From positions 83,266,001 through 83,330,000 of the forward strand of contig NC_091474.1 of NCBI RefSeq assembly GCF_036971445.1: 64,000 bases of DNA, in the 5' to 3' direction. The translations under genes were made by a program, and so were the position numbers. Below, piece by piece: positions 10,059 to 27,801 of the stretch (position 1 is its first letter; every line of letters begins with the position of its first letter). Below the pieces are notes generated by a model. The model did no database searches, was not told the DNA's origin, and worked only from the letters and a program-made list of their open reading frames with translations. The stretch comes from Narcine bancroftii (taxonomy: Eukaryota).

Positions 10059-10544
10059 ACACCTAAATTCAATTCAAACCAGCGTCATTGAATCGAGTGA
10101 ACAAGTTGATTTTTTTTGGGGTGAAGATTTTTACAATACAGCCTGACTCCAGTGTTAACCCATTACTTAAATTGATTTGCTGCCATGGGAATGTTGGCAA
10201 TGTAACAATGTCAAGCTGACGACTGGGCCAAAATTGGCTAATTGTTTCCACGGCATTTTGCCTCTTTCAGTCATTAACCTGAGAGCAGACAGAAGAATAA
10301 AGCAGGAATATTGTCAATGTGTGTGCGGCTTTGACATCTCAAAGCAAATTAGTTTATTCAAAAGAACCAAATCAAACGCAGCGATGATTTGGAAGGCTCA
10401 TCTGGTTGCTTTAGAGCACCACTATGAGGCTGAAGATGGAACAACATGTAATCACTCCAGAAAAAGTAGTGCAATTTTAGCACCCTATTCTCTGCTATTT
10501 GCTATAATGTGAGCAGATTAAGATTTTTTTTATAAAAAGTGGAT

Positions 10545-17271: not shown

Positions 17272-17360
17272 CTATGGAGTCACATTTAAAAAAAACACGT
17301 CAATGTTCAAATGTAGCATGTTTAAGACAGGTCAAACAGGTTTACAGAACATATTTTCTT

Positions 17361-18048
17361 ACTACAGTAAAATCCCTGGTATCCGGCACGTCTGGGGATT
17401 GGTGGATGCTGGTTAAGTGTATTTTCTGGTGCTTGAGACTTACTCTTCCGATGCCTAACGAATACACTTGCATTAAGAATAAACAATTCAAAAGACAAAA
17501 ATACTGTACTGACACTGAACAAACCTCACTTGCATGCATACATGCACTTTATTATCAGCAACATTCTTTGAAAACATTAACCGTCGCTGCACCCGCGGCG
17601 GGTTCCTCCCCCTCCATGGAGCTGCCCAAAATGAACAATAACATTATAGACAATTAACTCCACCCTCCCCCAAGTTTACAGATAAAGCTTCTGACTGGGA
17701 TGGCTCTTACTAAGCAGGGACAAGGAGACACTTGAAGAGAGTCGCCCCAACAGTGAGCAGTATCAACCAGTTCCATCCTGGGTAACACCATTGCTGTTTC
17801 ACACTTTATTCAAACAGCTGCTATGAGCAAAGCATGACCAAGGCCCTCCGCTGGCTGAACATTTACTCCTACCTTCACCGAAGGTATATGTGCTACTTCA
17901 GAGAATACTTACTTTTACAATTTTAAATTAACTTTTTTTTTTAAACTGTTAGTTTATTCTTATTTATTTTCAAAATAATTTATTTAATTTTCCTCCTTTT
18001 TTTTTTGCCAGTTGCTTGAGGCTGCTGTTTGCTTGTGTTTTTACTGTA
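17361..18048. mobile_element. Tigger/pogo-like non-autonomous DNA transposon
   Basis: TA-CAGTAAAATCCCTGGTATCCGG left end and ...gtttttACTG-TA right end. Related ends at about 26754 and 46432-46641. Confidence 0.6.
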
Positions 18049-18684
18049 TCCAAGAGTAAACTCATTTGAGATATGCAAAAGTATGAGGTAGATGGCAAGA
18101 TGCCATTTCACTAAATGGAGAGTCTACACTCAGGAGCATGGCCACAGGACAAAAACTGAAAGGTCACTTGTCATTTCATAAAATCGTGGTTGATTCTTTT
18201 CACCTCAGCACCAGTCTCCTGTTCTGACCCCAACGTTCTTTATTCTCCTTATATAAAGTATAAATATTGATCTCTAATTTGTTTACTAGTTGAGCCTCAA
18301 CCTTGGGCAGAGAATTCCGAAGATTCACTAACCTCTGGATGAAGACATTTCTCCTCATCCGTGTAGTGAATTAAACCACAACCCTGGACAGGGAAAAACA
18401 ATGACCCTGGTTCCATCTGCCCCTCATTCTGCTTTCACCTATTACTTACCTGCCCCTGTCCCCCCCAAGTCTGCTCTTCTCCCTTCCCTACCTGGATGTT
18501 TGTGACCACCATCTATCCCCCTCTTCAGTCCTCTATCACCTATCAACCCATCTCACCCTTCCCTCTTTTTATTGGCTATCTTCCTTCTCCACTCTTAGTC
18601 CTAATGCAGTTCAACATACACATTTGCACATTTTTACACCAAAGATTGCTGTTCCATCCAGGTGTTCTTTTACAATTGAATGAT

Positions 18685-19350
18685 GACAACTTACGTGAAT
18701 AGGGTGGTGAAGAAGGCTTTTAGTATTCTGGCCTTTATCAATCATTGCATGGAATATAGGAGTTGGGAGGTGATGTTGAGATTGTATAAGACGTTGGTGC
18801 GGCCTAATTTGGAGTTCTGTGTGCAGTTCTGGTCGCCTAATTATAGGAAGGATATAAACAGAGTGGAGAGAGTGCAGAGAAGGTTTACCAGAATGTTACC
18901 TGGGTTTAAGCATCTAGAGTACAGGGAGAGATTGGACAGATTAGGTCTTTATTCTTTGGAGCGTAGAAGGTTGAGAGGGGATTTGATAGAAGTATTTAAG
19001 ATTATGAAAGGGATAGACAGAGTGGATGTGGATAGACTATTTCCGTTAAGAGGAGGAAAGATTAAAACAAGAGGACATGAGTTAAGAATTAAGGGGCAGA
19101 GGTTTAGAGGTAACATGAGGAGGAACTTCTTTACTCAGAGAGTGGTAGCCGTGTGGAATGAGCTTCCGGGAGAAATAGTGGTGGCGGAGTCAATTGTATT
19201 ATTTAAGAAAAGGTTGGACAGGTATATGGATGAGAAGAAGATGGAGGGTTATGGGCATTGTGCAGGGAGGTGGGACTAGAAAGGGGTGTTTGGTTCGGTG
19301 CGGACTAGAAGGGCCTAATGGCCTGTTTCCGTGCTGTAATTGTTATGTTA
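18685..19350 (+). mobile_element. CR1 LINE 3' fragment, reading frame intact
   Basis: 199-aa ORF (LVRPNLEFCVQFWSPNYRKD...LRGDLIEVFKIMKG...RNFFTQRVVAVWNELP) and ttatg-repeat tail. Confidence 0.92.
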
Positions 19351-19706
19351 TAAACTTGAACTTGAATCCTTTATCCTGCCTCTGTAGGATCCTCTCAGGT
19401 CCACCAGTTTCCTCCAGTGGTTTGTTTTTTGCTCCTGATTGCAGCATCTGCACTCTCCAATTGCTGGCCTCATTGAAAGGATGTCCATTATTAGAATGTA
19501 TCATAAAAAATAAAGTAGCCACTGAAGTAGAACTCCTTGTATTCAAACCTCTCCATGACCTCATTCCCTCACTAACTCTAAACTTTCAAGATCTCTTCAA
19601 TTTTGCTTTTCTCTGAATTTAATCAGTTTACTTTGGTAGCTGTCCCAATGATGGCACATTCCTCCCTGGACCTTCCCACTGCTCATTCCTTCCTTGTGAT
19701 ACACAT

Positions 19707-20348
19707 TAGGCCCTTTCATGCCAAGCCTCCGTCTGGAGGTCGACAATAAGTGCGGAGGGAAAAATGTAAACTGACCTTTCATGGAGCAGCCCTGTGTCGT
19801 ATTCATGTTGAGTGAAGCTTCATAGCACCCTCCAGAGTCGCTGAAGGCAGTGTCGTGGCACCGCCTGTCATAAACACACAGCAGAGCAATAGCCGTCTTT
19901 CCCACCCATCATCCCCCACTTGCAGCTGGAATCGTTCTGGGAATCAGAGAGCAGTTCCACCTGCGTGGGGAAGACAGCCATTGCTCTGTTTTGAGGAGCT
20001 GCTGATGAGCGGCCCTGAAGGCCGAAACCCCTGATAGCTCCTGCTCTGACGGGTCCCGCCAGCTGCCCCTGCCCTGAGGGTGTCATGGAGCGAGAGGGGT
20101 GTGTAAGTGGGAAAGAGAAGGGAGATGGGTCGCTGGCTAACGGTATAATTGCAACAACATCAGCCCGCCAGTCGCTTGCAGTGGCATTACATTCATGCGA
20201 GGCGGTGGAGCGCAGCGCTCCGCCGATGATTCTTCCCTGAGAGGGATTGCAGTTGGCACCTGGGAGCCAACCATGGCACATTCATGGAACTAAGTCTCCC
20301 GACGTGAGGGTGGAGAATCTCTGCTGTTTCACTACATGAAAGGGCCTA
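19707..20348. mobile_element. Unclassified non-autonomous element with perfect 14-bp terminal inverted repeats and a structured interior
   Basis: TAGGCCCTTTCATG (19707-19720) and CATGAAAGGGCCTA (20335-20348); internal hairpins at 19726-19739, 19882-19988, 19994-20042 and 20203-20225. Confidence 0.65.
19994..20059 (+). ncRNA. Hammerhead-ribozyme-like core (variant or degenerate)
   Basis: CTGATGA (20002-20008), GGCC-ctgaa-GGCC stem II, GAAA (20024-20027), closed by AGGAGCTG/TAGCTCCT. The cleavage triplet is non-canonical in this fold. Confidence 0.35.
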
Positions 20349-20351
20349 TTA

Positions 20352-20610
20352 AAATTAAATTTTAAATTTAGACTAACGGCTGGAGAACAGGCCATTTCTC
20401 CACGAGTCCGTGCCACCCAGTTTATACCCCATTAACCTACACGTATACATTTTGAATAGTGGGAGGAAACCGGAGCCCCTGGAGGAAACCCTCGCAGACA
20501 CAGAGAGAGAATACAAACTCCTTACAGACAATGCAGGACTTAAATCCTGGTCCTCATCACTGGTGCTGTAACAGTGTTGTGCTAACCTCTACGTTTACCA
20601 TGCCGCCCCT
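20352..20610 (-). mobile_element. HE1-like tRNA-derived SINE
   Basis: Full-length reverse copy with aaattt-repeat tail at 20352-20370. Confidence 0.75.
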
Positions 20611-20694
20611 GATATCTCACATGGCAGAATAAAATGTTGGTGTCTATGTCACTTGAATAATTTTTATATATAAAAAGGTATATGTAAATAACAG

Positions 20695-20925
20695 TGTGAT
20701 AGTACAGATTCTATCACCAATGTGTATATGTACAGATGGCAGTGTAGGATGACTGTGATTGGCTGAGAGTGTTGCCACACCTACTGGCAGGTCTTAAAGG
20801 ATTGCTCCTAGCCAGACCAGGTCATTCTGGACTGGTCAACCTACTTGTTATATGCTCCAGTCTTTTAGTTAATAAAAGCCTTGGTTTGGATCAACAAGTC
20901 TTTGGTTCTTTCGACGCGCTCTACA
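20695..20925 (+). mobile_element. Solo LTR (231 bp)
   Basis: TG...CA termini; perfect 5-bp TSD AACAG (20690-20694 and 20926-20930); internal GATTGG (CCAAT), TATA-like cttaaa and AATAAA at 20871. Confidence 0.88.
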
Positions 20926-21999
20926 AACAGTAGCTGGTGAATGGTTTATTGTGTTTGATTTGATACGTAACACTACCAACTGGCAACAGAGACACAGAGT
21001 TTTGGATGGAGCACATGGTTTGCAACCTACCTTTGTACCAGATAGAATTAAAGCTCCCATCAATTTTAGTCTTTGTGGACTTTTAATGCAAATATCCCAA
21101 CCACGTGAGAAACATAATCTAGTGCAATATGAGGCAAATTATAGTTTGCTGAAGCTAACCTGAACCGTATTCAACCTGTGTGAAATGCAAGTGTCGAAAC
21201 TAATTTACAAACAAGAAAAAACTTGGGAGCATTTTATTCCCCATTAGTCTCGTTCAAGTCGAGAGACAAGAGTCCAACTGTTGATAGGATTGTAACATAC
21301 ATTTATTAGCCGTTACAGGGACTGTCTGAATTTTAATTACGCTGCAGGAAATCAATGTAGAGGATGTCAGTGTAGATAAATAGAATACCTTTCCACTTCA
21401 CGCTCCCTGCGCCCTTGTGCATGCACCATTCGAACTCCAATACAGGAGGGCATGGACACAGAACATTTCCCAATCTCTTCAAGGGAGATATATCTAATGA
21501 ATGTCAATACATCCACATCTCTGAGGTGGAACTCCATATAAATATCATTGCCCTTAAACTCGTGCACTTGAGGAATCGTGCTGCAAAAAATTATTTCCTC
21601 TAGTTAGATTATTTATCATCTCAATTTTAAAATCCTCAAACTCCTCTGGCCCTCGGCACTCCCGATCTCTAAAATCCAATAGCCTGATGACTTTCAATGG
21701 TGTCCAATGAGATGCTGTGGTGACATAATTAAAGGATATTCAAGGCACTAGAATTGATAAAAGCCACAAACACTGTCTACACTTTACTGCTTCTGTAAGA
21801 TTCTCCTCAAAGTCCAAGGCTTGCACCAAACTTTTGGATATTTTTCATGGACAATGGAATCCCCATGAAACAGAATTCAATCAACTGGAAAATGGAAAAG
21901 CAAAAATAATTGGAGAAAATAACTTCCCCAACTTATGGCCGTAATTCAGACCAAAGGATCGGTCGTATCTCAGAATGGACGCATGTGGGAATTGCATAC

Positions 22000-22473
22000 A
22001 TTTGTTTAAAAAAATTAAAGAATACATATAAAATTTACATGGTTTATGTTACATTTGACAAACTATAACAGGATACAGATCATGTAAGAGCTGGGGTCCG
22101 TAGACTGGGTGCAGCCATCTTGATTCCTGTGCACATGTGTGAGTGCCCAGTTCCCGTATTGGAATACGATTGGCACGTGTGCAGTGGGTTCGCGATTTGG
22201 AGTTTGGTGAGAGCACGCGTGAGAATTAAGCACCCTAACGATATTGAATTTGCGTCCTTAACTCTTGTGCATGCACCATTCGAACTACAATACAGGAGGG
22301 CATGGACACAGGAATCAAGATGGCCACGACCAGCCTACAGACCACAGAATGCGGACTAACAAGATAAGTACGCAAATATTGGCTCTTACATGCCATCTAC
22401 CTCTGTTATAGCTTGTCAAATAAAACATAAACAGCGTAAATTTTATATTTTTTCTTCATAATTGTTAACAAAT
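22000..22473. repeat. Foldback/MITE-like element with about 90-bp imperfect inverted arms
   Basis: atataaaatttacatggtttatgttacatttgacaaactataacag...catgtaagagc versus gctcttacatg...ctgttatagcttgtcaaataaaacataaacagcgtaaattttatat. Confidence 0.7.
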
Positions 22474-22564
22474 TTTCATTGTATGTGCGGATGAACGCAA
22501 GTCACATAGGTAACAACATCATTGCGACATTATCAGCCCACCCTTAGCTGAAGGGTCCTTTTCA

Positions 22565-25500
22565 CAAGAAGCATAGTGAACAAGGTAGATGAGCTGAGAG
22601 CATGGATTGGCACTTGGAATCATCATGTGGTGGCAATTAGTGAGACCTGGTTACAGGAGGGTCAGGACTGGCAACTCAATATTCCAGATGTTTTAGATGT
22701 GATAGAACAGAGGGTAAAAAAGGGGGAGGAGTTGCTCTGCTTGTTAAGGTGAGGTGGCAGGGATCGTCCAGTGAGGCTGTTTGAGTGGAATTGAGGGGAG
22801 GAGGAGGCATGAGGGAACTAATAGGAGTGTATTATAGGCCACCAAATGGGCCAAGAAATTTGGAAGAACAAATTTGTAAGGAGATAGCGGAAACTGACAA
22901 AATGTTTGGCCTGGAAGTCAGCCTGAAGAAAACTGAGGTCCTCCATCAGCCAGCTCCCCACCGTGACTACCAGCCCCCCCCCACATCTCCATCGGGCACA
23001 CAGAACTCAAAACGGTCAACCAGTTTACCTATCTCGGCTGCACCATTTCATCGGATGCAAGGATCGACAACGAGATAGACAACAGACTCGCCAAGGCAAA
23101 TAGCTCCTTTGGAAGACTACACAAAAGAGTCTGGAGAAACAACCAACTGAAAAACCTCACAAAGATTAGCACATACAGAGCCATTGTCATACCCACACTC
23201 CTGTTTGGCTCCGAATCATGGGTCCTCTACTGGCATCACCTACGGCTCCTAGAACGCTTCCACCAGCGTTGTCTCCGCTAAATCCTCAACATTCCTTGGA
23301 GCGACTTCATCTCCAACATCGAAGTACTCGAGATGGTGAAGGCCGACAGCATCGAATCCACGCTGCTGAAGATCAAACTGCGCTGGGTAGGTCACATCTC
23401 CAGAATGGAGGACCATCGCCTTCCCAAGATCGTGTTATATGGCGAGCTCTCCACTGGCTACCGAGACAGAGGTGCACCAAAGAAGAGGTACAAGGACTGC
23501 CTAAAGAAAGCTCTTGGTGCCTGCCACATTGACCACCGCCAGTGGGCTGATATTGCCTCAAACCGTGCATCTTGGCGTCTCACAGTTCGACGGGCAGCAA
23601 CCTCCTTTGAAGAAGACCGCAGAGCCCACCTCATTGTCAAAAGACAAAGGAGGAAAAACCCAACACCCAACCAACCAATTTTCCCTTGCAACCGCTGCAA
23701 CCGTGTCTGCCTGTCCCGCATCGAACTTGTCAGCCTCAAACGAGCCTGCAGCTGACGTGGACATTACCCCTCCATAAATCTTCGTCCGCGAAGCCAAGCC
23801 AAAGAGAAGAAGAGTGATCATGGGAGATTTTAACTTCCCTCACATTGATTGGGATACCCATACAGTAAGAGGGCTGGATGGGCAAGAGTTTGTCAAATGT
23901 GTGCAAGATAGTTTTCTTAATCAATACGTAGAGGAACCGACTCGGGACGGTGTAATACTGGATCTCCTGTTAGGGAATGAGATAGGTCAGGTGTCTGAGG
24001 TTAATGTTGGAGAACAAATTGGATCTAGTGATCACAACTCTCTTAGTTTTAGGGTAGTTTTAGGGAAGAGCAAAGAAGGGCCTAAAGCTGAGGTTCTGGA
24101 TTGGAGAAAAGCAAATTTCGAAGGAATGAGAATGGCTTTGGGGAGTATTGAGTGGGACATGATTTTTTTCAGGAAAGGATGTAAATGAAAAATGGAGAAT
24201 ATTCAAAGAAGAAATTTTGATAGTACAGAGTAGATATGTCCCAGAGAGGATCAAAGGAAAGGTTGGAAGTCATAGGGAGCCTTGGTTTTTGAGGAATATT
24301 ATAAATTTGGTTAGGAGAAAGAGGGAGGTGTACAAGAGGTATAAACAGCAGGGTGCTGAGAAATTGAAAGAGGACTACAAGGAGTGTAGAAAAAGTCTTA
24401 AGAAAGAAATTAGAAAGGCCAAAAAGAGGCACAAAGAGGCTTTGGCAGGCAGAGTAAGAATAAATCCAAAGGGTTTCTATAGGTAGATTAAAAGTAAAAG
24501 ATTAGTGAGGGATAAAATTGGACCCCTTGTAGATAGCGAGGGTAGGCTGAGTGAGAAGTCAGAGGAAATGGGGGAAATTTTAAATGATTTCTTTTCCTCG
24601 GTATTCACTAGGGAAAAAAATATTGTACCAGTTGAAGTAAAGAAAAATAGAGGGGAGGTCATGAAACATGTAAGGATAACTGAGGACATAGTGATGGCAG
24701 TGTTAAAAAAGATAAAGGTGGACAAATCTCCGGGTCCGGACAATGTATTCCCAAGGACACTCAGGGAGACTAGTGTACAGATAGTGCAGCCATTAACAGA
24801 GATATTTAGGATGTCACTGGTCACTAGGGTAGTGCCAGAGGATTGGAGGGTGGCTCATGTTGTTCCGCTGTTTAAGAAAGGGTCCAAATGTAAGCCAGGA
24901 AATTATAGACCTGTGAGTCTCACGTCTGTGGTGGGTAAGATGATGGAAAGTGTTCTGAGGGATGGCATTTACAAATATTTGGAAGAACAGGGATTGATAG
25001 GAAGTAGTCAGCATGGTTTTGTCAGGGGTAGATCATGCTTAACAAACCTTATAGAGTTTTTCAAGGGAGTTACAAAAAAGAGGCTATGGATGTTGTCTAT
25101 TTAGACTTTAGTAAATCTTTTGACAAAGTTCCCCACAGGAGGTTAGGAAAAAAGGTGGAGGCATTAGGTATAAATAATGAGGTGGTGAAATGGATTTAGC
25201 AATGGTTGGATGGGAGGTGCCAGAGAGTAGTGGTAGAAAATTGTTTGTCAAATTGGAGGCCGGTGACTAGTGCAGTTCTCCAGGAACTAAAACCATTGTG
25301 GTCCTGGGTCCACTATTGTTTGTTATATATATTAACAACCTGGAAGAAGGGGTGGTAAATTGGATAAGTAAGTTTGTAGATGATACAAAGATTGGTGGTA
25401 TTGTGGACAGCGAGGAAGATTACCGTAGCTTAAAAAAATATACGAAAGCTAGAGGAGTGGGCTGAGAAATGGCTGATGGAATTTAATACGGATAAGTGTG

Positions 25501-26281
25501 AAGTGTTGCATTTTGGAAAGGCAAATCTAAATAGGTCATTATCATTGAATGGTATACAATTGAGGAGTGCAGAGCAACAAAGGGATTTAGGAGTTATGGA
25601 AAATAGTACCCTCAAAGTTGATACTCAGGTAGATAGAGTGGTGAAGAAGGCATTTGGAATGTTGGCCTTCATAAATCGGAGTACTGAATTCAAGAGGTGG
25701 GATGTTATGATGAAATTGTACAAAGCATTGGTGAGGCCAAATTTGGAATACTGTGTGCAGTTTTGGTCACCAAATTATAGGAAAGATATAAACAAAATAG
25801 AGAGAGTGCAGAGAAGGTTCACGAGAATGTTGACAGGATGTCAGGGTTTGAATTACAGAGAAAGGTTGAGCAGCCTGGGGCTTTTTTCTCTGGAGCGTAG
25901 AAGATTGAGGGGGGATTTGATGGAGGTGATCAAGATTTTAAAAGGGACAGAGAGAGTCAACGTGGATAGGCTTTTTCAATTAAGAGTGGGGGATATTCAA
26001 ACCAGAGACCATGGTTTGAGATTGCAGGGGGAAAATTATAAGGGGAACATGAGGGGAAATTTCTTCACGCAAAGGGTGGTTGGGATGTGGAATAAGCTTC
26101 CGGCAGAGGTGGTTGAAGCAAGGATGTTATTTACATTTAAGGAAAGACTGGATAATTACATGGAGGGGAGAGGATTGGAGGGGTATAGGTGCTGGTCAAT
26201 GGGACTAGGAGGGTGGGGATTTGTTCCGGCATGGACTAGTAGGGCCAAATTGGCCTGTTCTGTGCTGTATATGGTTATATA
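22565..26281 (+). mobile_element. CR1 LINE, near-complete ORF2 (APE and RT) with stops and frameshifts, interrupted by an RTE
   Basis: SIVNKVDELRAWI...AISETW, IGVYYRPPN, VIMGDFNFPHIDW, GSSDHN, DKSPGPDN, NYRPVSLTSVVGK, SQHGFVRGRSCLTNLIEFF, KFVDDTKIG and the CR1 C-terminus; ggttatat tail. Confidence 0.93.
22887..23813 (+). mobile_element. RTE-clade LINE 3' portion nested in the CR1
   Basis: FGLEVSLKKTEVLHQP, YLGCTISSD, LRWVGHISRMEDHRLPKIVLYGEL, C-terminal CxxC zinc finger; tail gccaagccaaagagaagaag. Confidence 0.9.
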
Positions 26282-27801
26282 GGTCGCAAGTTGGGGAGTA
26301 CCTGTAAATAAAATTTAAAATAAATAAAATGGCTGATGTTGCTTGATGCTGGGGTGACTCTGCGAAAGTGTCTCCCTATCCCTGCCTCAAAAAAATCTTT
26401 ATATTCATATTAGGAATATAAGGAAGACTTTCATCTGTAAACTTGGTGGAGGGTGGGTTAATTACGATGGCAGCACAATTAAAGTAGCAGCTAGTGCAAC
26501 ACTGTAACAAAATTTAAATTCAAACCCCAGTCACTGGCACTGTAAATTACAGGAATTACCTGATTAAAGTGAACTTTACATAATTAAGGACTACAATACT
26601 GATATTTTTCAAATTTCTTTACATTTTGCACTGTATTTTAAATTGTGTATTCTTAATGCAAGTATATTAGTTTAACATTGTAAGAGTATCTAGAAAATTT
26701 GAATATCCGGTATCCGCGATCACCGGAGGTGCCAGACATGGAGATTTTACTGTAGAACATTGCAGGACAGGATCTGTGCTGAACACGAGGCCAAATTGAA
26801 CTAAATTTTCTCTGCTTGCACACAATCCATATCCCACCATACCCTACAGATTCGCATGTCTATCTAGAAACCTCTTGAGCACTTCCATTGTACCCGCTCC
26901 CACCACTCTCCTGGCAGTGGGTCCAGACAAACACCATTCTGAATGAAGATAACTTACCCTGCACATCTTCAAACTTTCCCTATTTCTGCAAATGCATGCG
27001 TTCAAGTATTTTACATTTTCATGCAGGGAGAAAAAATTCTGATTGTCAATCTAATCTGTACCTCTCATCATTTTATAAACTTCTGTCTGTTCTCCCCCAC
27101 CCTCCATTGCTCCAGAGAAAATAAACATAACCCTAGTTGTTCAACCTCTCCTTATGTCATACTGTCTAATCTGATCAATCTTTTCTGCACCCTTTCCAAA
27201 GCCCCCACATCATCCCTGGAATGAGGTGTCCAGAAATGCACACAATACTCCAAGCATGGACTAACTAAAGTTTTCTGCAGCGACAACATTACTTCCTTAT
27301 TCAATATTTATTATCTCTTCTTTTGGGTGGATATTTTAAAGGTCATTCATGGGTTGTGGATGTTGGTGGCATTTACTGACCTTCTCTAATTGCCATGAAC
27401 TACATCTGACCCGGGAGAGTGGGGAAGAGACATTGCACTGGTCTGCAGGGTCCTACTGTCTGGTCCTGATGCCGACAGCTCTGTACAGGCTTTAAAAGGC
27501 CTGGTAAGGGAGTCAATGGTGTTTTTTAAAAAAATCCTGCAACCACAGAGATCTGTGGCCAAGATGGCGGCGCCTGGGCTGGGCAGCGTACCAGGAGGGG
27601 TGTGGGGTGCACTGGAGGAAAATCCACAGACACTCAGGGTTTCTGAAGGGACTCACTTTTATTTCTCTTTCTCTTATTGTTATGGAAGCCAGCAATGCTC
27701 ATGGCGATTCTTTGATTGCCTTACAGCAGACTATGTCTATTACATGTTATGCACATTATTACATGACAATGAAAGTAACCTTTACCTAGAAATGTACTTA
27801 C

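Follow-up and report, generated by a model that had tools for sequence, protein, structure and literature searches.

The segment examined here, in an intron of Narcine bancroftii, raises the question of whether a short, hairpin-rich stretch with inverted repeats at its ends is a mobile DNA element, a structured RNA with a ribozyme-like core, or one carrying the other. A first-pass annotation of the window (the whole stretch of 64,000 nucleotides that was analysed) had offered two answers: a non-autonomous DNA element, Crypton- or Harbinger-like, that had captured a structured RNA, or an exapted structured-RNA locus in the host intron. We find that positions 19708-20347 of the window are a 640-bp decayed copy of a multi-copy, non-coding and non-autonomous DNA element of the PIF/Harbinger (PHIS) group. 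The explanation in which we have high confidence is that this is an old PIF/Harbinger (PHIS) MITE with 13-bp TIRs and a 3-bp TSD, likely moved in trans by larger elements with the same ends, and that the hammerhead-like stretch inside it is likely an accident of mutation.

The family, its ends and its target site

Much of what had been read from the letters alone stands. The element is richer in GC and CpG than its surroundings (GC 0.56 versus 0.41 and CpG observed/expected 0.54 versus 0.36, with 2-kb flanks for comparison) and contains no convincing ORF, all stop-to-stop frames being short and the longest 137 aa. The TTCATG motif is present at all five reported places (19715, 19778, 19802, 20192 and 20281), as are the four fold-backs at 19726-19739, 19882-19988, 19994-20042 and 20203-20225, with folding z values of -2.0, -7.0, -3.8 and -3.7, respectively, and -4.7 for the element as a whole; what does not stand is their independence as RNA structures, the fold-back at 19994-20042 being private to the window copy. 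There is, as reported, no second copy within the 64-kb window, and elsewhere in the genome there are many, so that the element is not single-copy.

Membership of a repeat family is a direct observation. A search of the species' own genome gave at least 76 matches of 66-85% identity besides the window itself (40 of 3,110 candidates scored), while exact genome-wide matches number 127 for the 23-mer of the left end and 1,400 for a 22-mer from the hairpin arm. All 28 distinct loci sampled with that 22-mer belong to the window copy's family, which we call family A, and one of the 28 carries the exact 23-mer left end of the window copy's subfamily. Five exact arms in 30 loci would put the copy number of family A at about 8,400, a figure good to an order of magnitude only. 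Both ends could be found in 38 of 58 family loci, with a 13-bp TIR at each end and lengths from 220 to 1,005 bp. The majority sequence of family A is 796 nt long, with 65% GC and a CpG observed/expected ratio of 0.80, and the copies are a median of 84.7% identical to it (84.8% for the window copy); the high GC and CpG of the family are therefore inherited and decaying.

The ends and the TSD were likewise observed directly. In the window copy the left TIR (19708-19720, plus strand) and the right TIR (20335-20347, minus strand) are each 13 bp long and are flanked on both sides by ATT, the left duplication at 19705-19707 and the right one at 20348-20350 (both plus strand), the former preceded by C as is usual for the family. 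A perfect 14-bp TIR had been reported, and the 14-nt inverted match between 19707-19720 and 20335-20348 does exist; its outer T/A, however, belongs to the TSD, because the adjoining base varies among the 38 two-ended copies (T in 18, A in 17), and a 14-bp TIR with TA ends was rejected for this reason. An exact 3-bp TSD is found in 16 of the 38 and one with a single mismatch in 12 more, against a mean of 2.55 and a maximum of 9 in 1,000 shuffles, and duplications of 4, 5 and 8 bp occur in 0, 1 and 0 of the same copies. The usual target is WNW between an outer C and an outer G (C-WNW-G), with C at -4 in 24 of 38 and G at +4 in 25 of 38, and a weaker W/S pattern is seen further out. In the left flanks of these 38 copies, TSDs of the type ANT number 17, TNA 8, ANA 8 and TAA/TTA 7; the strict PIF/Harbinger TSD in the scheme of PMC4482050, TWA, thus accounts for 7 of 38, versus 17 of 38 for ANT.

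Cryptons leave no TSD and are moved by a tyrosine-recombinase partner. Because a TSD is present here and the partner described below encodes a DDE transposase, we reject the suggestion that the element is Crypton-type.

We also note some features of family A loci. Subfamilies with variant TIRs and boxes (L193-L221) are more numerous than the window copy's own. At L102:123-310 the left end of the element has been amplified into a tandem array of five 39-bp units, and at L101 it is duplicated 4.7 kb apart (positions 203 and 4872).

Larger elements with the same ends

Relics of DDE_Tnp_4 transposases are plentiful in the genome (150 of 1,405 candidates scored), and a search for the MITE consensus within 1.5 kb of 30 such loci gave no match. 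The partner was instead found by extending 11 family loci that have no near right end, one of which (L096) was informative: here a transposase lies between the left and right ends of the MITE in an element of 3.97 kb flanked by TAT on either side. This transposase is up to 66% identical to the other relics (E 6.5e-46), and the long element is itself a repeat in the genome. At 30 long-element loci, alignment to the MITE consensus is confined to 1-187 and 554-796; the exceptions are a separate MITE copy next to the long element in L152 and a weak match in L149. The ends shared with the long elements, again an observation, correspond in the window copy to 19708-19872 (plus strand; consensus 1-186), which holds a small palindrome at 19725-19740 and two of the TTCATG sites (19778 and 19802), and to 20130-20347 (plus strand; consensus about 554-796), which holds the palindrome at 20203-20225 and the sites at 20192 and 20281. 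In the long elements, too, TTCATR and the small left palindrome lie near the left end, and the region of the right palindrome is also common to both. Inside the consensus TTCATR occurs 4 times versus 0.32 in shuffles, and none of 1,000 shuffles reaches 4. A purine-rich stretch at consensus positions of about 503-553 is absent from both the long elements and family B (see below).

Six loci carry two-ended long copies, observed directly as partner elements of 2.6-4.2 kb, all decayed. An exact TSD was called by script in one of the six and is present in two of the six if L096, read by eye, is included. The DDE_Tnp_4 domain scores above the Pfam cut-off in three long-element loci (61.6-64.9 bits). 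In a separate domain search of eight long-element fragments the DDE match falls under the Pfam curated cut-off, an antisense Myb_DNA-bind_4 domain (PF13837) appears in two (E 7.7e-6 and 8.8e-5, just below the curated cut-off) and five show no domain match. The long copies are a median of 87.7% identical to their majority and so of an age similar to that of the MITE.

These observations bear out the first-pass annotation in its claim of a non-autonomous DNA element and in its Harbinger guess: there is a 3-bp TSD, and the partners contain relics of DDE_Tnp_4 and Myb/SANT genes. PIF/Harbinger elements are described in PMC2836001, in the part available to us, as having a layout of two ORFs, a 3-bp TSD and an extended target preference, with a Myb-like protein that binds the ends, and the PHIS scheme in the sections seen of PMC4482050 likewise includes a 3-bp TSD, an extended target and a DDE transposase with a Myb/SANT protein. 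It could be argued that the element belongs to some other TIR group (Crypton, CACTA, Zator or similar) and that the long Harbinger elements merely lie inside or beside its ends. Other superfamilies also have 3-bp TSDs, and the domain scores of the long elements are weak. Yet in many independent long copies these ends meet one and the same transposase and Myb region at constant junctions, and the core DDE motifs, compared by eye, fit the PHIS blocks; we regard such a misassignment as very improbable.

Six of the DDE_Tnp_4 loci (L062, L063, L064, L068, L071 and L072) hold the domain in stop-free frames of 387-585 aa, and are candidates for domesticated HARBI1-like genes or for young elements. 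Just downstream of the 428-aa open DDE_Tnp_4 frame of L063 lies a stretch of about 600 bp (L063:2180-2778) with ends like the family A TIR.

Relation to known transposon groups

With its short TIRs, 3-bp TSD and extended target, family A resembles Tourist-like MITEs such as mPing and zebrafish Harbinger3N_DR, and it resembles those systems also in having a probable mobilizing partner of about 4 kb with a DDE transposase and a Myb/SANT ORF (PMC2836001 and PMC4482050, as far as the parts consulted describe them). It differs from them in its target, which is C-WNW-G and not plain TWA, and in its interior, which is a foreign palindrome plus a minisatellite and not a deletion derivative of the partner.

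Within the PHIS scheme, going by the sections of PMC4482050 on these groups, family A shares with NuwaII the C and G around the 3-bp site and the Myb/SANT ORF, and its DDE blocks, with motifs compared by eye, look closest to NuwaII_CPB1 and NuwaII-1/2_BFlo; with Pangu it shares the ANT TSD and a TIR starting with AG. The same sections define NuwaII by TNA and a TIR starting with GG, whereas in family A the TSD is TNA in 8 of 38 copies and the TIR starts with AG; and they give the ORF2 of Pangu as lacking any known motif, unlike the Myb ORF here. Judged from its sequence, then, family A mixes marks of NuwaII (C/G flanks, Myb ORF, DDE blocks) with marks of Pangu (ANT, AG). Cartilaginous fish are not listed for NuwaII or Pangu in those sections, and the TIR words of family A were not found in the supplementary text of that paper that was searched.

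A literature search, mostly judged from listings and with subscription papers outside its coverage, found no paper on family A, none on interiors shared between superfamilies and none on a hammerhead in a TIR element. Family A may already be named in repeat catalogues.

A palindromic block shared with a second family

The middle of the element is dominated by a long, near-perfect palindrome (19873-19993, on neither strand in particular) that forms 59 Watson-Crick pairs in the consensus and of which the window copy has lost about 14 bp of the 3' arm. Its core is shared with a second family, to which we were led by two motif-bearing loci with other flanks. This family B (L163-L192 and L223-L272; for example L166 and L169) is about 660-1,200 bp long, has TIRs that differ from those of family A and shows an 8-bp TSD within two mismatches in 11 of 17 two-ended loci, three of them exact, versus a maximum of 0 in shuffles; because of the 8-bp duplication we take it to be hAT-like. 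The right end of family B is represented by 167 exact 17-mers in the genome. Positions 204-496 of family A align with 292-614 of family B (E 6.6e-43), and the hairpin, the motif and the minisatellite are common to family B and the window copy's family, several subfamilies keeping the hairpin core only. The hairpin is present in 19 of 30 loci picked by the family B right end, including some from subfamilies with quite different interiors.

In family B the palindrome is longer: the bases that make up the apparent stem II of the hammerhead look-alike pair with its mirror arm upstream, and the 7-nt bulge in this pairing is a tandem duplication. Family A has lost this upstream pairing partner, which suggests, from the sequences compared, a B-like source for its middle block. 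The outer arms differ between the two families and are nonetheless self-complementary in each, so arm symmetry would have been kept or restored in the source elements. A central hairpin block common to two MITE groups with different ends implies the transfer of a module between superfamilies. There is a partial precedent in MER6, a Mariner-derived MITE that captured a retroelement domain, the SINE V domain (PMC6887750, seen in part): there, too, the ends come from one element and the middle from another, but the shared block here is a DNA palindrome common to two TIR groups and not a SINE domain.

In all families the shared core (19889-19983) is bounded on the left by AAT followed by GGCC and on the right by GGCC followed by ATT. 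These bounds resemble a GG-starting PHIS TIR in an ANT site, and the core might itself have begun as a fold-back mini-element of great age; none of 28 loci showed a copy of it standing alone. A broader proposal, which we put forward tentatively and would not bet on at even odds, is that the palindrome of about 115 bp is a cassette that has travelled between Harbinger-type (3-bp TSD) and several hAT-like (8-bp TSD) non-autonomous elements, either as a template-switching hub in gap repair or as an ancient fold-back mini-element, its outer arms being kept symmetrical in each lineage though their sequence differs; the block may also have helped the Harbinger MITE to outnumber the plain derivatives of its partner.

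To the right of the palindrome, a GC-rich, variable minisatellite remnant (20030-20080, plus strand) is the source of most of the length variation among copies. In one family B copy, L113, expansion of the internal GC-rich unit has given rise to a long 21-bp minisatellite, which lies beyond position 1600 when the locus is read in motif orientation.

If the long hairpin acted as RNA, its paired positions might be expected to change together. Covariation, named beforehand by the first-pass annotation as a refuting test of the structured-RNA reading, was assessed in 52 of the 82 loci with a match (102 examined; three family B loci left out). Over 59 pairs in these 52 copies, compensatory cells number 53 versus 57.7+/-5.5 in arm-swapped controls, and a single transition at a G-C pair has led to G-U in 173 cases and to A-C in 172; covariation thus does not rise above controls, and a bias towards G-U is absent. 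At non-CpG pairs compensation shows a slight, non-significant excess (12 versus 8.9, a value reached by 170 of 1,000 controls). Paired changes picked out by eye in L017, L028 and L040 were set aside as lying within the control range. The decay of the long hairpin is neutral DNA decay, with no sign of RNA selection on either strand.

The hammerhead look-alike

The stretch at 20002-20027 (plus strand) had been read as a ribozyme-like core, and part of that reading holds: the window copy has the box C3-U4-G5-A6-N7-G8-A9 at 20002-20008, two extra bases, a 4-bp stem II and G12-A15.1 (GAAA). All other required parts are missing. Stem II does not close directly after A9, the 10.1-11.1 pair being absent and the 4-bp stem needing a 2-nt insertion; G12-A15.1 is followed by four C and then TG; extra bases stand at both junctions; and the apparent stem I is immediately preceded by G-A in place of the U16-H17 that a hammerhead needs. 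There is no stem III, no A15.1-U16.1 pair and no 1.1-2.1 pair in the window copy. By the established definition of the core, even minimal hammerheads need U16-H17 and a stem I in register. Any change in the core, or a mispair beside it, leads to rejection of a hammerhead candidate in PMC3088659, according to the part of it seen.

Searches gave the same picture. A descriptor search, run with no positive control for the descriptor, returned no type I or type III solution for the window copy. An Rfam scan of the region gave no hammerhead at E<=5 and three weak non-hammerhead matches (E 0.77-3.5), and at the gathering score no hammerhead was found in eight sibling loci. Half-cores number 4 in the 64-kb window versus a mean of 1.15 in 40 Markov-shuffled windows, none of them complete. 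Among 25 half-cores in 836,613 bases, the loosest type I descriptor was passed by the sibling copy L034 and by four unrelated stretches. The other half-cores in the window, also incomplete, lie at 10430 (+), 37065 (+) and 52223 (-).

That the core is not conserved in the family was observed directly. Of 81 copies selected for matching the remainder of the motif, 30 were fetched: 28 of these have G at position 15.1, one has A and one has T, and in a count of 32 distinct copies G stands there in 29; the exact GAAAC version has one genome-wide match, the window copy. None of 21 sibling loci picked by the hairpin has a CTGANGA box, and 15 have a variant of the CAGAGAG type (21 of 28 loci kept; the other seven had been misread on the opposite hairpin arm and were dropped). 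In the apparent stem I (19994-20042) a mutated stretch pairs with a minisatellite unit, the two having been brought together by a deletion of about 100 bp that is private to the window copy (consensus about 357-457; junction at 20027-20030, plus strand). In family B the corresponding stretch is CCGACGA, from which CpG decay yields CTGATGA, and the boxes of the 22 copies read (CCG 7, CCA 7, CTG 6, CTA 1, GCG 1) bear the two-way decay signature of an ancestral CpG.

The likeness to the hammerheads of Penelope-like elements, retrozymes and amniote introns thus comes down to the succession of CUGAUGA, short stem and GAAA in the window copy. The differences are that this copy has no U16/H17, stem III or 1.1-2.1 pair and has two extra bases before stem II, that the look-alike is not conserved in siblings, and that it is antisense to the host gene. 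The sequences compared make it likely that the hammerhead-like stretch is a chance product of mutation and not a ribozyme, and the claim that the element captured a structured RNA or ribozyme is not supported, the hammerhead features not being kept in the family and the motif being antisense to the host.

One might still ask whether the central block is a decayed hammerhead that the founder MITE took over from a Penelope-like element or a retrozyme, and that once cleaved and no longer does. The subfamily consensus of the window copy keeps CTGAYGA, a 4-bp stem and GAA in hammerhead order, which is unusual for 800 random bases, and in older copies the 6 bases before the box have a possible pairing partner 12 nt downstream of GAA; many Penelope hammerheads are minimal and do without helix III, as stated in the part of PMC6155905 consulted, and MER6 offers a precedent for the capture of a retroelement domain by a MITE (PMC6887750, likewise in part). 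We nevertheless consider this origin quite improbable. Family B, which keeps the 5' partner, is further from a hammerhead, with a CCGACGA box, G at 15.1 and GG/AG/GA at U16-H17; the stem-II bases are accounted for as a mirror arm of the palindrome; the genome is without a multi-copy donor carrying the same stem and GAAAC; and a 6-bp pairing, as the best among 23 offsets when G-U is allowed, is close to what chance would give.

Proposed history and implications

Returning to the reading of the element as a Harbinger-type MITE with an accidental look-alike, its history might be pictured as follows. From an autonomous element of about 4 kb the founder MITE would have retained about 186 bp at the left end and about 240 bp at the right, and it would have taken its middle, probably by template switching in gap repair, from the palindrome block that is also found in the 8-bp-TSD (hAT-like) MITE group. 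The TTCATR sites and the two small palindromes at the ends are probably DNA-binding sites of the putative Myb/SANT protein, and larger elements with the same ends likely supplied, in trans, both this protein and the transposase for cut-and-paste movement of the MITE. The family would then have spread to several thousand places and decayed by about 15%. CpG decay or a short deletion may have produced the CTGAYGA box in one subfamily, and an old 7-nt duplication the appearance of a stem II plus GAA; in the window copy only, a change of G to A would have completed GAAA and the deletion of about 100 bp would have made the false stem I.

The case shows how a single copy of a repeat can come to hold a convincing imitation of a hammerhead through CpG decay, a duplication of 7 nt and one deletion; checks at the level of the family expose such look-alikes. 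To transposon specialists it offers a well-defined MITE of the Harbinger type, together with its partner, and a target signature that mixes those of NuwaII and Pangu. The palindromic block, present also in elements of another superfamily, is relevant to the exchange of interiors among non-autonomous elements. That block, shared by MITEs of two superfamilies, is the one lead for specialists; the ribozyme claim does not hold.

The host intron

The first-pass annotation had placed the element in intron 5 of slc29a3. It does lie in an intron, the last one, of an equilibrative nucleoside transporter gene (17272-27801, minus strand; GT donor at 27801, best AG acceptor before 17271); the name, going by the exon pattern, is presumably slc29a3. 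Because the host gene is on the minus strand, the hammerhead-like motif is absent from the host pre-mRNA. A contig from organism B (X5, 231 nt) spans 20001-20231 with one difference and includes both the motif and the deletion junction, so the deletion of about 100 bp and GAAA predate the split of organisms A and B; one difference in 231 means that the split is too recent for the comparison to be informative on constraint. No RNA run was listed as containing the sequence, and the contigs of two presumed-RNA sequencing runs contain sibling copies only and leave the unique flank uncovered, which speaks neither for nor against expression.

Another reading would make the window copy an exapted structured RNA, or an active ribozyme acting in the host transporter intron. 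Its local folding is strong, 11 of 13 hammerhead core positions are present and the motif and deletion junction recur in the X5 contig; but the motif runs on the strand opposite to the host pre-mRNA, the relationship to organism B is too close to reveal constraint, and the window copy, besides missing part of one hairpin arm, has diverged no less than its siblings. In addition, the core has G in place of U16 (or of H17) and lacks the 1.1-2.1 pair, each a ground for rejection in the part of PMC3088659 seen. With the long hairpin decaying neutrally as well, exaptation is not supported as an account of the locus, and we judge it extremely improbable.

Finally, we note that the element sits among other repeats. 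Very high-copy repeats flank it on both sides, at 19000-19400 and 20675-20942, and another high-copy repeat (20370-20610), with very high summed depth, starts about 20 bp to the right of the element; we take this one to resemble a V-domain SINE of cartilaginous fish.
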